Source of the DNA: Dehalococcoidia bacterium
GTDB taxonomy: Bacteria > Chloroflexota > Dehalococcoidia > SM23-28-2 > RBG-16-64-32
Assembly (NCBI GenBank): GCA_963665775.2
Contig: CAXXTF010000002.1
Location: 928,001 to 992,000, forward strand
DNA: 64,000 bases
Direction of reading: 5' to 3'
The notes beneath the pieces were generated by a model. The model was not told where the DNA came from, did no database searches, and saw only the letters and a list, made by a program, of their open reading frames with translations. Both the position numbers and the translations under genes were made by a program. Shown here piece after piece: positions 35,090-43,733 of the stretch. Position 1 is the stretch's first letter; every line of letters starts with the position of its first letter.

Positions 35090-36913
35090 TTAACCCCCCA
35101 ACTTAGGCACAGTAGTCCTAGAAGGGGAAGATACTTCATAAGGGCTAGCGTTATCGCGCCCTTGAGCCCGAGAAGCTTCATGGAATCGGCGTCGGGCCCT
35201 TCGGATCCACCTACTTAAGCTGGGGAGGTGGGTGGCAAAGACGTCTCGAAGGACGCTCTGTGGCACCAGCCCGGGGAGCCAGTCTGGTGGCTCAGAGCGT
35301 AAACGGCTCTGGGCCATCTCCATTTGTGGGACCTGAATCGGATATAGCTCCAGGACGATCTGCCGCTCGCTGACCTCAACGCGCCGCAGCACAAGTCGAA
35401 TCAGTTCCTTCCTCTCGAAGGGCGTCAGGCAGGCGTACACCTCGCTTAACTTCCCTAGAGCGGACCGTACCGCTTCCGCGGTGACTTGCTCCCTATCTAG
35501 TGATCTCAGGGCTTCCTCAGCCTCCACGATACCGTGTTCCAGATCGCCACGACGTTTGGCCAAATCGCTCAGCTTGTCCATGAGGAAGACCCGACCGCCA
35601 TCCTCTTCCAGGCCAGACCAATCGCCCATCAGCTTGTCGGCATCCGCCTTGACCTCGTCCAGGCTCTTCTGAAGGCCGCGGCGGCGGCGGGCCAACGCGG
35701 GCCTCTGCCGCGCCATCCTCTGGTTTGTCTCTCCCACGAGGCGTTCTAGCAGTCCGTCTGCCGTGGCCAAGTGTTGGATGCGCTACACGACCGCGCCCTC
35801 GATCTCCTCAGCCGCAACGTGCAGCCGGCAGTCCGAATTCCGACAGACATAGTAGAAATAGGTCACGCCTAGACGCCCTGTACCGGATCGACCCTCCATC
35901 GCCGAGTCACAGCGCCCACCGTGCAGAAGCCCCCGGCCCAGGACGTAGGCATGACGAACCGGGCGGGAGCCATTGTGGTTCGTTCATCCGTTGGCGGCCA
36001 TTAGTTGCTGGACCTGCTCGAACTTCTCCACGTCGACGATGGCCGGCCACACGGCGTCCACCAGCCGGTATCCGGCATCCACCTCACCCCTGGCCTTCGC
36101 TTTCTTGTTGATCTCTTTCTTCCCGATGTAGGCGGGGTTCTTGAGCATGTACTGGACCGACGTGATGTTAAACGGCTTGCCCGGATGGTGCTTACCCCGA
36201 CGGGATGTGTACCCCTTCGTCCGATAGCCCCGACTGTTGAGCGCCTTCACTGTCTCAGCGATCGATCCGAGATTCAGGTAGCTATCGGAGCCGAAGTTCA
36301 CCAGCGCTGCCTCCTGATCGTTCGGAACGAGATAGCCCGTGCGATCGGGGTCCAGGTCGTAACCCAGCAAGCGACCGCCATTCCACAACCCACGCTCCGC
36401 CCGGGCCGCGGTGGCGTCACGGGTTCGCTCCGCCGTTTGCTCCCTCTCGAATTCCGCCAGGGCCATCATCATGGTCACGAATAGCCTCCCCTGCGGGGTA
36501 GTGGTGTCGTAGTTCTGCTTGAGGCAAACGAACTCGACGCCATACTCGGTCAGGACTTCGAAGAAGTGGAGGAAGTCCTTCACCGAGCGGCTGATCCGAT
36601 CCAGAGCCGTACAAAGGATGGTGTTGACGCGCCCTGATCTAATATCAGCGAAGAGTCGCTGGAACTCGGGGCTGCGAATGGAGTCCTTCCCTGACACCGC
36701 CTTTAGCTCGTAGAGGCCGCCCTCCACCCATTCCTCGCCGGCCACGGCGGTCTTGTACTCCACGTGCTGCCGCAGTCTTTGCAGCTGGTTCTTTAGGGAG
36801 CCCTCGTCCGTCATCGCCTGACGATCGGTGCTCACCCGAACTACCAGCCCCACGTATCTAGCGAGCTGCGGGTGCGGGCCGTTGCCATTCTTCCTGGGAG
36901 CTTCAACAACCAA
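35090..36913 (-). pseudogene. Large serine recombinase copy E (nonsense TGA at 35984-35986 plus frameshift)
   Basis: RVST, VSGK, LDRISRS in 35984..36913; coiled coil and WLPGLVPQSVLRD in 35090..35770. Confidence 0.9.
35269..35283 (+). repeat. att core, direct repeat of the tRNA-Asn 3' end
   Basis: GCCCGGGGAGCCAGT identical to 6717-6731 and 24163-24177. Confidence 0.85.
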
Positions 36914-36916
36914 GGG

Positions 36917-37117
36917 TCACTGTTCCTCCACGTGGCCGTTCGATTGGCAGTCCGTAGTAACCGATACGTCGGGCGGTAAGTCAACGCCTGATCCAGCCGC
37001 TTGTCTTTGGCCCTCGAGCAGGCGCTCAATGCCGATTGCGAGGATGGCTACAACTCGCCGAGTCCGATCTTCGGCCCCGCCCTCATCGCTGGCGGCCCGA
37101 TCCAAAACCCTCCGCAT
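36917..37117 (-). CDS. Small conserved ORF upstream of the recombinase (candidate directionality factor)
   Basis: MRRVL...VVAILAIGIERLL...VTTDCQ; paralog of 18161..18367. Confidence 0.6.
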   Translation of the reverse strand: MRRVLDRAASDEGGAEDRTRRVVAILAIGIERLLEGQRQAAGSGVDLPPDVSVTTDCQSNGHVEEQ

Positions 37118-37268
37118 TTCAAGGTTCCTATACGCAAACCGATGACGATGTGTCGGATCGGCAACCGACCCGCAACTTGTGTTGGAGCAACGGATGGAAA
37201 AACCTCCGCTCAACCTCCGCTTAGACCCCGTAATTATGTAGGAGCCAAATAAGACCTAATTAAGAGGG

Positions 37269-37868
37269 GTGGACTCTTCACCCACTCCTCCAGAAGGCCA
37301 GTCAGATGAGTTCGAGACCTGGGAACTCGAACTAGCCAAACAGGTTATTCGGGACTTCCTGGCCAGCCGTCTTCCGTCCCCCGGATTGGAGTTTGATGAC
37401 CTCCTTCAGGAATGTCTCCTTCACTGGTGGAGACAGCGAAATGCATACAAAGAGACCAGGGGTGCCTCTCCAAAGACCTACATGCGGACAGTCCTCCGGG
37501 CCAAGCTTCTGGACATTGAACGGGCAGCCAAAGCTGGGAAGCGCGGAGGGGGTAGAAGTGACCACTCTTTTGATTCACCCTTCGGCACAAATGAGGAAGG
37601 CTCCACGCTACGAGATGTCATCCCCGATACCAAGCCCCACGGAGACCCCGAGAAGGTGGCTGAGAGATCTGCCCTGCTCCAAAAGATCAACAGCGTCCGC
37701 CGCAAGCTCGACCTCCGCCAGCGACGCCTTCTCGATGGACTAATGGTCGGGAGCAGCATGACGGAACTGAGCCGGCAGCTCGGCGTTCCCCGACCCACGC
37801 TCTACGGCGAGAGAGCGCGTATTCGAAAGACGTTTCGCGATGAGGGACTAGCGGAATTCCTGCGCTGA
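37269..37868 (+). CDS. Sigma-70 family (ECF-like) RNA polymerase sigma factor
   Basis: Region 2-like FDDLLQECLL..W...Y...RGASPKTY; region 4 HTH SMTELSRQLGVPRPTLY. Confidence 0.85.
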   Translation: MDSSPTPPEGQSDEFETWELELAKQVIRDFLASRLPSPGLEFDDLLQECLLHWWRQRNAYKETRGASPKTYMRTVLRAKLLDIERAAKAGKRGGGRSDHSFDSPFGTNEEGSTLRDVIPDTKPHGDPEKVAERSALLQKINSVRRKLDLRQRRLLDGLMVGSSMTELSRQLGVPRPTLYGERARIRKTFRDEGLAEFLR

Positions 37869-42127: not shown

Positions 42128-42134
42128 GGCATAA

Positions 42135-42518
42135 GTGCAATCGCGCCTCTGCTCGTTCCGCAAGGAGTCCGGTGAGGTATGCGGAGCTCCACCCCTTCTG
42201 GAGGGGGAGTTCTGCTTCTGGCACGAACCAGAACGTGCGCAGGAGGTCGCTGAGGCACGGCGGCTCGGCGGATTGCGCCGGCGCAAGGAGCGCACCGTCG
42301 CCAGCGCCTATGACTTCGAGGGGCTGGAAACGGTCGGCCAGATCCGGAGACTGGTCGAGGTGGCGGCCGTAGACACCCTCTCCCTGGAGAACTCCGTGGC
42401 CCGCTCGCGTTCCCTGGCCTACCTGGCGCAGGTAAGCGTGAACCTGCTGGAGAAGGGCAGCCTGGATGAACGGCTGCGAGCCCTGGAGGACACCGTCCGG
42501 AGGAAGACGAGAGGGTAG
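42135..42518 (+). CDS. Element Cys/His zinc-finger protein
   Basis: C.....G..CGAPP.....CFWH; basic [11 protein letters not shown]-terminal LDERLRALE. Confidence 0.8.
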   Translation: MQSRLCSFRKESGEVCGAPPLLEGEFCFWHEPERAQEVAEARRLGGLRRRKERTVASAYDFEGLETVGQIRRLVEVAAVDTLSLENSVARSRSLAYLAQVSVNLLEKGSLDERLRALEDTVRRKTRG

Positions 42519-43427
42519 GTGATCATGACGTCGCCAGAGAAGCGGCTGCAAGAGATTATTAGCGGCCTGTCTCCGGAGGAGAAGGCGCGGCTGGCCATCG
42601 AGGATGCCCTCCGCCAAGAGCCCGTACTCTCGCCGGGTGACTGCGACAGGATGGTGCTAGCGCTAACCCCCCAAGATGGCCGCCGCTACAACAGGGTAAT
42701 AGAGCGATACCAGTCGCTTCTGGCGAACCTGCGTCTTCTGTCGCAGCTTGTCGACGAAGCCCGTAGGCAGCTCCTACTCCGGGATCGCATCCTCTGGTTC
42801 GAGCGGGCGCTCATAGAGCAGGACGAAGCGATCGCGTTTGATCCCGGCGTAGCTGATGCACTTCTGGTGAAGAATCCTAACCTCAAGCCCGGTAAGCCCT
42901 TGACCCTCCAGCTGAGTCTGGGCACCGTCCGCCTCGGTGTCTGGGGCAAGAAGAAACGTACTCCCTATGACAAGACCAGCGGCGTTCAGCTCGATGAGCG
43001 GATGGTGGAGGCGCTGGAGCACCATATCGGGCGCGCTCGCCAGCTAGCCCGCGAGGTGAAGGCCATCTACAGCAATCTGGTTGAGGAGAGCAGGGCGATC
43101 GGGCTCGACTTCGCTGAAGAGTTCGCCACCGGTGTTGTCAGGCAGATTTCGGAGTATGATCGGCCTCTGCTGGAGGATCTGATCAGCACTAGGAATGATG
43201 GCGCTCCGGCCAGCGAAGCCTGGCACCGGGAGAGCGTATTCCCGGTGGATAAGGCCCGGGCGCTCGTATGGGAAGAGATCGAGGAGGACGCTGAAACCGC
43301 GAGGCGTATCCGTGAGGACCCGGCCGACTGGGTGCCGGCTTCATATGACCAAGAGATGCAGAACAGCGGCCAGTTGTTGGAGATCCTGAAGGGTCAGGCG
43401 AAAAGGGGGCTGGACGCCGGCGGGTGA
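42519..43427 (+). CDS. Element conserved ~300-aa hypothetical protein (only intact copy)
   Basis: Paralogs or remnants at 14833, 33634, 54866 and 57993. Confidence 0.82.
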   Translation: MIMTSPEKRLQEIISGLSPEEKARLAIEDALRQEPVLSPGDCDRMVLALTPQDGRRYNRVIERYQSLLANLRLLSQLVDEARRQLLLRDRILWFERALIEQDEAIAFDPGVADALLVKNPNLKPGKPLTLQLSLGTVRLGVWGKKKRTPYDKTSGVQLDERMVEALEHHIGRARQLAREVKAIYSNLVEESRAIGLDFAEEFATGVVRQISEYDRPLLEDLISTRNDGAPASEAWHRESVFPVDKARALVWEEIEEDAETARRIREDPADWVPASYDQEMQNSGQLLEILKGQAKRGLDAGG

Positions 43428-43733
43428 GTCGGGAGGTTGGACATGCCGGCACGCTCAGGCACCGCCCTCGGGACGAGATCGCTCAAGGTCCACCTTGCGC
43501 ACCAGCCATCACAACTACCGCCTCGGTTTCGCCCTCTGCTAGCCATGCTGATGGAGTTTGACGCGGGACGGAGTCAGGGATAGGATACAAGCCGTTGGGC
43601 GCATAGCACACTTCGGGGTCACGAAGTTGATATGGGGAATCCCGGCCATAGGTTCTCTGCCCAGACTGGCTTGGAGAGCCTTTAAGGCGGATAAGATAGC
43701 GCTGGCGGTGGTTCACAGACCATCGCCGGCATA

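Follow-up and report, generated by a model that had tools for sequence, protein, structure and literature searches.

Introduction

The ssrA islands of Dehalococcoides contain a six-gene integration module, described as comprising DsiB, DsiA, a RecF-like protein, a ParBc protein, Mom, and a protein of ~700 aa with an N-terminal primase domain (PMC3146451). DsiB is presented there as a CcrB-like serine recombinase with attL embedded in its gene, and the islands are said to seem devoid of genes for independent replication (PMC3146451). The VcrA integrative and mobilizable element (VcrA-IME; ~12 kb) is described as occurring either integrated or as a circular episome and as being targeted by CRISPR (10.64898/2026.09.15.751708). 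Genes for the vinyl-chloride reductive dehalogenase and other reductive dehalogenases, which are put to use in cleaning up groundwater, are located on related ssrA islands. Here we analyze an ~8.2-kb region (35270 to ~43490) within a 64,000-nucleotide stretch of DNA from a Dehalococcoidia bacterium (contig CAXXTF010000002.1, positions 928,001 to 992,000; hereafter the window, in whose coordinates positions are given). An earlier sequence-only reading had described this region as a satellite-like core in which a recombinase gene diverges from genes for a sigma factor, a primase-ATPase, a fusion of a ParB domain and a DNA methyltransferase (ParB-MTase), and zinc-finger proteins. The interpretation we favor, with moderate confidence, is that the region is a decayed copy of a compact, self-replicating integrative element of Dehalococcoidia, belonging to a family that is moved by helper phages.

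Sequence comparison places the ssrA-island integration modules as the closest described relatives of the region, rather than the phage-inducible chromosomal islands (PICIs) or P4-like satellites to which it had previously been likened. Like the ssrA-island module, the element combines a CcrB-like large serine recombinase, an attachment (att) site in the recombinase gene's own 3' end, a stable-RNA gene as target, a ParB-domain protein, a DNA-modification enzyme, and an N-terminal-primase protein of ~700–870 aa; it also shares with the ssrA islands the bacterial class and the absence of capsid and conjugation genes. Two relatives at tmRNA genes (loci L025 and L032) have the order primase, Mom or a 188-aa open reading frame (ORF), ParB, small ORF, resolvase, and large serine recombinase, which is the six-gene order described for the ssrA islands (PMC3146451), and their replicases are 47–48% identical to that of the window. 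The best named match of SR1, an intact paralog of the region's recombinase, was CcrB (E=3.5e-44), far below the equivalog cut-off. Unlike the ssrA-island module, the element targets tRNA-Asn(GTT) rather than tmRNA and lacks the DsiA resolvase and RecF-like genes (there is no second Resolvase-domain ORF in 35090–43500), both of which are present in L025 and L032. In addition, its ParB domain is fused to an N6/N4 methyltransferase, with no Mom match in the window, whereas Mom is present in L025, and the family has an extra divergent pair of genes for a sigma factor and orf99, RAMA, orf127, orf302, a small terminase subunit (TerS) in relatives, and a swappable replicase. New here are the reading of the large primase-domain protein as a replicase with an iteron-type candidate origin of replication (ori) inside its gene and the occurrence of TerS in many relatives that have no large terminase or capsid gene. 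The integrase site is a 15-nt core shared with a tRNA gene. Our literature searches returned no account of the tRNA-Asn/sigma/ParB-MTase variant, nor of an iteron ori or a TerS gene within such elements.

PICIs are described as encoding an integrase, an alpA, merR, or stl regulator, a primase-replicase, a capsid-morphogenesis protein, and TerS in a median length of 9.5 kb; more than 99.9% are assigned to Proteobacteria or Firmicutes, and the word 'Chloroflex' does not occur in that report (PMC10085698). The elements studied here resemble PICIs in their size (~8–11 kb), an integrase at one end, a divergent regulatory gene, a putative primase-replicase with an adjacent candidate ori, and, in relatives, TerS without the large terminase subunit (TerL), as well as in having no tail, holin, or other structural genes. 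They differ in that the integrase is a serine recombinase (broken here) and not a tyrosine recombinase, the regulator is a sigma factor with no match to the alpA, merR, or stl families, there is no TerS in the window's genome and no recognized capsid-morphogenesis gene, and the host phylum is Chloroflexota. The functional analogue of the PICI primase-replicase would be a DnaG-type primase-ATPase with iterons, and the likeness lies in the outline of the layout, with no sequence kinship recognized for any core component. P4-like satellites carry psu, delta, sid, epsilon, alpA, and the alpha primase-helicase gene; no ORF of the module matched a PHROG of the 'head and packaging' category or a P4-type gene. 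As in the staphylococcal cassette chromosome mec (SCCmec), a CcrB-related recombinase is paired with insertion at a specific site, the 3' end of a conserved gene. SCCmec nevertheless lacks a replicase, an ori, a sigma factor, and TerS, and both its target, orfX/rlmH, and its host are different. Large serine recombinases together with their own replication initiators are described for proven and candidate satellites, namely the PICI-like element (PLE) of V. cholerae and marine module-3 virion-encapsidated integrative mobilizable elements (VEIMEs), some of which carry TerS homologs and methyltransferases (PMC9618062); this likeness is by description only, and the hosts differ. Dehalococcoides IME1 elements are described as 21–28 kb in length with a XerCD tyrosine recombinase, a pI-like ATPase, membrane proteins, and a terminal Cro/C1 repressor, the criteria given being a XerCD recombinase in first place, a large metallophosphoesterase-like coding sequence, and a length of ~23 kb (10.64898/2026.09.15.751708). 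Integration at tRNA genes, the bacterial class, and a primase-helicase are common to IME1 and the elements studied here, and an episome is reported for IME1 (10.64898/2026.09.15.751708); IME1 hallmark genes were not found between 33 and 44 kb by Pfam or PHROGs.

Results and discussion

A compact divergent module with a layout conserved among relatives

The window's genome (2.35 Mb, 63% GC, two contigs) is 91% complete, and the named relatives of the window's proteins come from Dehalococcoidia, SAR202, and Chloroflexota metagenome-assembled genomes. The ORF list together with Pfam and PHROGs matches recovered every gene that the sequence-only reading had named, each in its place (Table 1). The module is divergent and tightly packed, as had been proposed: the primase stop codon and the ParB-MTase start codon overlap by 1 nt, ParB-MTase and orf127 are separated by 7 nt, and orf127 and orf302 by 0 nt, a spacing from which we take the four genes to be translationally coupled. 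For the 14 ORFs between 33.6 and 50.7 kb, Pfam and PHROGs gave no match to families of capsid, terminase, portal, tail, or conjugation proteins, and Pfam, together with PHROGs on a subset of the ORFs, detected no capsid or conjugation genes in the compact relatives, in agreement with the earlier claim. Two of its gene assignments stood in part. The serine recombinase gene is present, but it is a pseudogene with two stop codons and a lost cysteine (SRpsi), and of the two proposed zinc-finger proteins, orf127 has a signature (invariant C6, C16, C27, and H30), whereas orf302 has none.

Table 1. Features of the element, its attachment site, and the related cassette copies. Positions are those of the window unless prefixed C2.
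Feature	Position	Strand	Evidence or remark
tRNA-Asn(GTT), attachment site of the family	6655..6729	+	28.5 kb upstream of the element copy
Cassette copy 5	14.8–17.5 kb		degraded
Adjacent remnant, cassette copy 6	33643..35089 (33.6–35.1 kb)	-	ParB' residues 1–245 fused to orf302' residues 54–300 (internal deletion); directly downstream of SRpsi
SRpsi, large serine recombinase pseudogene, CcrB/DsiB-like	35090..36916	-	Resolvase E=3.5e-35; Recombinase E=5.8e-16
att core, 15 nt	35270..35284	+	in the 3' part of the SRpsi gene
orf98, possible small gene 5' of the recombinase, uncertain	36917..37213	-	39.7% over 73 aa to the stretch upstream of SR1 (weak); no family match
Sigma-70/ECF (extracytoplasmic function)-type sigma factor, divergent from the recombinase	37269..37868	+	Sigma70_r2 E=7.7e-11; TIGR02937 46.1 bits vs 42.9-bit cut-off
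orf99, conserved sigma-factor partner, no known family	37920..38219	+	Pfam, PHROGs, and other family searches negative
Replicase, CHC2 zinc ribbon and Toprim primase with fused P-loop ATPase and winged helix, 868 aa	38238..40844	+	
Iteron cluster, candidate ori, in the 3' tail of the replicase gene	40439..40919	.	7 exact CGTTCAACC and variants
ParB-MTase, fusion of ParB_N and N6/N4 DNA methyltransferase, phage type	40844..42127	+	phrog_498 E=5e-135
orf127, CCCH zinc knuckle, basic stretch, and helices; distant DUF5763	42135..42518	+	
orf302, helical protein, rare, function unassigned	42519..43427	+	homolog searches
Right limit of homology to paralogous copies	43428..43492	.	no att core
Cassette copy 1	element itself		RAMA absent
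Cassette copy 4	54.8–57.1 kb		orf302 truncated
Cassette copy 2 (L001)	C2:229.4–235.1 kb		same-family primase at C2:232559–235069, 81% identical, one in-frame TAG
Cassette copy 3 (L002)	C2:256.9–260.2 kb		no primase of the replicase family

The layout of the region recurs in other genomes and in metagenome contigs, as expected for the element family that had been proposed. An orf99 homolog was found in 8 of 400 other Dehalococcoidia genomes; a sigma-factor homolog adjoins it at seven of these eight loci, and an SR1-type recombinase gene diverges from the sigma-orf99 pair at six (L073, L081–L084, and L086), with the replicase, ParB-MTase, and orf127 genes following at three (L081, L083, and L086). 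The metagenome contig L065 has an SR1-type recombinase (71% identity) divergent from sigma (51%) and orf99 (60%), after which the operon continues with a Toprim_2 and AAA_25 replicase, ParB-MTase, RAMA, orf127, and orf302. In total, the sigma factor and orf99 accompany an SR1-type recombinase in seven loci outside the window, and the sigma homologs in the same position (L065, L073, L081–L084, and L086) are 38–51% identical to that of the window. Because the divergent layout recurs in six of the eight orf99 loci and in L065, it is not a chance arrangement. The sigma/orf99 pair heads the divergent operon and would switch it on, and it is plausible that the sigma factor replaces a repressor pair, as had been suggested.

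The downstream cassette is conserved around a variable replicase. orf302 is rare, with 24 proteins in a large database and occurrence in 2 of 401 sampled genomes of the phylum, including the window's own. A metagenome scan with an orf302 alignment yielded 25 loci; with L040 added, 18 of the 26 loci have orf127 immediately before orf302, and every contig that extends far enough shows ParB-MTase and RAMA ahead of orf302. The replicase is swapped between relatives: the CHC2-Toprim-ATPase type of the window also occurs in L001, L018, and L021, while others carry Prim-Pol/D5_N (L045, L049, L053, L081, and L086), DUF3854 (L052), RepB_primase (L057), NrS-1 HBD/D5_N (L047), or Toprim_2/AAA_25 (L065 and L073) types. 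The integrase also varies, being a tyrosine recombinase in L018, L020, L021, L052, and L059. The genomes of the window's own family contained only distant primase homologs beside tyrosine recombinases, without the cassette. In scans with the primase, single-protein patterns gave nothing in viral or genome contigs, and alignment-based scans gave matches. One IMG/VR contig of 14.7 kb (L089) holds two inverted copies of an element with tyrosine recombinase, PrimPol, ParB-MTase, and TerS, with orf127 beside one of them.

Integration at the 3' ends of stable-RNA genes

The att core, CCCGGGGAGCCAGT(T/C), comprises 15 nt and equals the 3' end of tRNA-Asn(GTT) plus 3 nt, with one mismatch at 35270–35284. 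The earlier start of the module at 35269 coincides with this core. The window contains four matches to the core, compared to 0.32 expected, at 6718 (tRNA-Asn), 19989 (SR1), 24164 (a serine recombinase fragment), and 35270 (SRpsi). In L065, the recombinase reading frame runs from the core directly into the reverse complement of tRNA-Asn(GTT), which closes a Leu-CAA, Gln-TTG, Asn-GTT cluster that is also present in the window at 6447–6729. The 3' end of the recombinase gene adjoins or overlaps tRNA-Asn in L065, L081, L082, L083, and L086. Other relatives lie at tmRNA (L025 and L032), tRNA-Thr (L020), or tRNA-Leu (L021); the window itself lacks a tmRNA gene. In intact relatives, a CcrB/DsiB-like recombinase would integrate the element at the tRNA-Asn(GTT) 3' end, the crossover core being placed within the recombinase gene's own 3' end.

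Several relatives have clear boundaries. L020 is a 6,686-bp element at tRNA-Thr between perfect 37-bp direct repeats; L081, in a complete genome, occupies ~10–11 kb between tRNA-Asn and a host PD40 gene; and host genes flank L021, L023, L025, L047, L049, L053, and L057. In the window, homology to the paralogous copies ends ~65 bp past orf302, the att core was not found near 43.5 kb, and there are no long direct repeats around the module. Downstream, orf420 (SnoaL/Spondin_N) resembles a host gene, with paralogs at other places in the genome. Scans for promoters (one site vs 1.2 expected) and terminators (nine sites vs 4.7 expected) were uninformative. Just to the right of the element end, a 92-bp repeat (43553–43645) recurs at three other places in the genome with 80–86% identity.

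In SR1, SRpsi, and a remnant at 57.6 kb, the recombinase extends beyond the core. In SR1 and SRpsi, a 60-aa tail leads straight into a ParB(-MTase) gene, and the 57.6-kb remnant has a partial tail ~0.4 kb upstream of the ParB-MTase gene of cassette copy 4; in all relatives, the recombinase match ends at residue 560, at the tRNA. The junction between recombinase, tail, and ParB could be an un-recombined, attP-like junction of an element in which recombinase, ParB-MTase, RAMA, orf127, and orf302 are colinear, or it could result from insertion beside resident cassettes. The attP model is unconfirmed because the 60-aa tail was not found at the far ends of relatives. What occupies the tRNA-Asn site in the window is junk rather than an element; directly after tRNA-Asn, at 6730–6900, lies a C-terminal fragment of an IS3-type transposase.

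A replicase with a candidate origin in its own gene

The N-terminal half of the replicase is DnaG-like (PDB 2au3, E=6e-11; T7 gp4 primase domain), with a CHC2 zinc ribbon scoring 25.9 bits against a cut-off of 24.9 bits, and the remainder has an invariant Walker-A motif (G408 and K409) and a C-terminal winged helix, with more than 652 homologs. Its true start is probably near 38430–38469. The protein has no counterpart in sequenced phages, as none of 432 matching records covered at least 80% of it.

All seven exact copies of CGTTCAACC in the 64-kb window fall within 474 bp (40446–40919), in both orientations, around an AT-rich patch (40560–40574) in the non-conserved 3' tail of the replicase gene. 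The densest 8-mer cluster lay at 71–76% of the replicase gene in 7 of 15 loci examined, with no cluster at that position in the remaining eight. The number of repeat copies was eight in the window and in L001, six in L018, nine in L020 (CGGTTGCA), five in L021, five in L025 (AATTCGAA), and four in L032 (GGTTCGAA), and the cluster words are locus-specific (CGGTTGAA, CGGTTGCA, AATTCGAA, and GGTTCGAA). One sequencing run, X8, has an 89-bp repeat-bounded deletion between iterons. We interpret the cluster as a putative replicase-specific iteron ori, to which the replicase would bind and from which it would replicate the excised circle. The earlier description of the element as self-replicating agrees with the presence of its own replicase and an iteron-type candidate ori.

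Phage-type packaging genes and alternative explanations

Relatives of the element carry a phage DNA-packaging gene. TerS of the P27 family is encoded within the cassette in L057, which is identical to L058 (PF05119, E=1.6e-26; TIGR01558, 80.3 bits for a cut-off of 45.6 bits; phrog_83, E=4.5e-44). It is likewise encoded in L081 (E=1.9e-31), whose TerS matches 501 phage records. Weaker Pfam matches were obtained for L049 and L048, and tblastn detected TerS in L021, L068, and L030 and in the IMG/VR contigs L088, L089 (two), and L090 (two). No TerL, capsid, portal, or tail gene was matched by Pfam in the compact loci scanned, nor by PHROGs in the subset of their ORFs searched. The ParB-MTase fusion occurs in 319 phage records, and two phages, Javan100 of Streptococcus and AcaML1 of Acidithiobacillus, have the order replication genes, ParB-MTase, small ORFs, TerS, TerL, and portal. 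The elements therefore look like this section of a phage genome, with their limit at TerS or ahead of it. The carriage of a phage packaging gene by relatives makes it probable that the family travels in phage particles; the presence of TerS without TerL or capsid genes, or any other virion gene, is the best, if indirect, sign that a helper is required and suggests that transfer takes place in hijacked phage capsids. Satellite status is inferred in this way because no helper phage has been identified, and at the level of the family there is good indirect evidence for phage-assisted transfer of these non-self-transmissible elements. In our model, the operon consists of the swappable replicase with the iteron ori in its 3' tail and then a conserved cassette of ParB-MTase, RAMA, orf127, and a variable last gene (orf302), often together with a phage TerS; the methylase would protect the DNA, and the element's TerS would redirect packaging by the helper phage, as in PICIs.

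Several observations weigh against this interpretation. Searches of the window's genome for Terminase_4, HK97 capsid, and TerL_ATPase gave no match, and neither TerL_ATPase nor HK97 capsid was matched in G043, the host genome of the TerS-bearing L081. TerS is also missing from the window's copy and its five paralogs (best E=0.09 by whole-genome tblastn), and no alpA- or stl-type regulator or capsid-morphogenesis gene was recognized. Neither orf127 nor orf302 has a match in 50,697 phage records, and orf302 has none in IMG/VR; predicted structures of orf302 (pLDDT 65) and orf127 (pLDDT 75) gave no informative fold, with a best BFVD match of E=0.09. Modules of the element also occur in phage-like contexts: the replicase family lies with an endolysin, a repressor, and endonuclease VII in the IMG/VR contig L038, and the other two loci contain RusA and PD-(D/E)XK with a weak TerL match ~4 kb beyond the locus (L084) or AAA_24, DUF669, and a LexA-like repressor (L085). 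The far-end tRNA-Asn core was not found in the elements with serine recombinases (L065, L081, L082, L083, and L086), the recombinase 3' ends in the window's island are followed not by a tRNA but by the 60-aa tail and a ParB gene, and no excision joint was detected in the contigs of four sequencing runs, with none of the 15 joints listed, of 20, linking 33.5–35.3 kb to 43.5 kb. Finally, the VcrA-IME is reported to be only modestly enriched in viral fractions (10.64898/2026.09.15.751708).

In the main alternative, the element is an integrative mobilizable or plasmid-like element that is independent of phages. Once excised, it would be an episome replicating from the element's ori, and its spread would be through natural transformation, vesicles, or hitch-hiking with budding IME1-type viruses, TerS being a leftover or having another DNA-binding role. 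We regard this as unlikely, although it is the strongest of the competing explanations. It would account for the replicase and iterons, the ParB domain could serve in partition, the host genomes searched contain no helper genes, and TerS is absent from all six copies; moreover, related ssrA islands were named integrative and mobilizable elements by McMurdie et al. (PMC3146451), and the VcrA-IME is described as a circular episome with only modest virome enrichment (10.64898/2026.09.15.751708). It fits poorly with P27-family TerS, scoring above curated cut-offs, at conserved positions in at least eight distinct relatives, with a ParB-MTase of the kind that immediately precedes terS in phage genomes, and with the absence of ParA, relaxase, and coupling protein from the window and from the relatives' loci scanned. 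The region might instead be a decayed early-region remnant of a temperate tailed phage from which the structural genes were deleted, which would explain the broken recombinase, the abundant fragments in the island, the occurrence of the replicase family with endolysin and repressor in L038 and of sigma-orf99 in phage-like replication regions (L084 and L085), and a gene order that parallels phage early-to-late junctions. However, numerous independent genomes and contigs share the same compact architecture, with intact genes and ends at host genes, the perfect att repeats of L020 enclose only 6.7 kb, and independent truncations would not all end at one place, and we therefore consider a phage remnant improbable. 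Homologous modules lie mostly outside complete prophages and integrative conjugative elements, as in L020 and L081, and not always within them as the sequence-only reading had envisaged for a mere remnant. It is more improbable still that the ParB-MTase/RAMA/orf127/orf302 cassette is a defense or modification system for which the rest of the element is a vehicle. PADLOC assigned ParB-MTase to a Type II methyltransferase (PDLC03229, E=4.5e-118) and RAMA to the candidate system PDC-S14 (E=6e-10), and restriction-enzyme fragments lie nearby (53460–55509). We rejected this possibility, as the PADLOC matches were limited to the methylase and RAMA, with orf127 and orf302 matching no model, no nuclease or effector partner was found, and an integrase and a replicase accompany the cassette in every case, with TerS often among its genes.

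Additional leads on the two small cassette proteins were limited. DUF5763 matched 9 of 12 orf127 family members (best E=4e-5), and in the ESM Atlas orf127 lies near phage and Chloroflexota clusters, DUF5763 being present on 46% of one cluster, while leads for orf302 were weak. The top VIA-align hits for the orf302 and orf127 models (Z 10.8 and 6.9) are generic helical bundles within the tool's noise range, and a predicted orf127-orf302 complex scored 0.13 (mark 0.32), which speaks neither for nor against an interaction.

Beyond the window, we tentatively suggest, at somewhat less than even confidence, that Dehalococcoidia host a previously unrecognized, phage-spread family of phage satellites built from four swappable modules, of which the ssrA/vcrA islands are cargo-carrying members. 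The modules would be a tRNA- or tmRNA-targeting integrase of the serine or tyrosine type; a sigma/orf99 switch shared with temperate phages of the class; a replicase, of at least five types with their own in-gene iteron ori; and a packaging cassette of TerS, ParB-MTase, RAMA, and the CCCH protein. If so, phage satellites would extend to Chloroflexota and would include a sigma-factor regulator, for which we found no description among satellites in the literature searched, and the spread of the ssrA/vcrA dehalogenase islands would be phage-mediated rather than an unexplained 'mobilization'.

Decay of the window's copy

SRpsi aligns by tblastn with the intact SR1 (18321–20183) in a single frame over 35093–36913, with 68.6% identity over 609 aa. 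It retains the Resolvase and Recombinase domains, which SR1 has together with a zinc beta-ribbon, but it contains in-frame stop codons at 35984–35986 (TGA) and 35783–35785 (TAG), and codon 333 (35918–35920) specifies Gly in place of a zinc-ribbon Cys. We compared the region with contigs from four runs (X1, X2, X7, and X8) of four studies. Over 35271–38650, the X1 and X2 contigs differed from the window at zero and one positions, respectively. The X7 and X8 contigs, from two other studies, differed at 35986, 35785, and 35920, where the codons are CGA (Arg), CAG (Gln), and TGT (Cys); X7 has a further 1-nt insertion behind 35972, and the X8 recombinase contig has no indel. As these two runs are undamaged at the three sites, sister populations hold the same element without these defects. 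SRpsi was disabled recently.

The window's copy has neither RAMA nor TerS, lies 28.5 kb from tRNA-Asn, and adjoins another remnant. The copy in this genome is thus probably no longer mobile, its recombinase being broken, its location off the tRNA, and RAMA and TerS missing. Three of the four run contigs begin at 35271, within the att core, and the fourth at 35306, while neighboring contigs end at 35212–35235; the contig breaks at 35236–35271 may be due simply to a single-nucleotide polymorphism bubble (35243 G>A), or the core may have been joined in more than one way.

An island of related copies

The ParB-MTase/orf127/orf302 cassette occurs at six places in the genome, as determined by tblastn and blastn over its whole length (Table 1), and recombinase copies or fragments lie at 18.3, 24.0, 35.1, and 57.6 kb, with insertion sequences and other fragments between them. 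With its related copies, at least six in all, the window forms an accretion island. Copies 2, 3, and 6 have an additional conserved stretch of ~170 bp after orf302 (L001 7300–7460; L002) that is absent in copy 1 and holds a small hydrophobic ORF on the opposite strand.

A 443-bp inverted repeat surrounds SR1 (17102–17544 vs 21258–20816, 84.7% identity). The arrangement between 14818 and 23206 suggests an inversion between two ParB-MTase genes that parted SR1 and ParB' from the methyltransferase, RAMA, orf127, and orf302. Abutting cassette copy 4, fragments of a Type I restriction R subunit occupy 53460–55509 (T1RH-like_C, E=1.5e-133; T1R_D3-like), where one ORF joins orf302 residues 1–216 to a piece of T1R domain 3, and the segment 54862–55710 is 97.8% identical to C2:257209–258057. 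Other features of the window include a fragment of a different serine recombinase at 30598–31620 (Recombinase and zinc ribbon only; 96% identical to C2:109537–110378), a 602-aa Cache-domain protein at 27507–29315 with internal direct repeats of ~387 bp at 95–96% identity (27861–29083), and, at 58080–62034, a family of ~320-aa ORFs without a Pfam match that has many paralogs in both contigs at 70–85% DNA identity.

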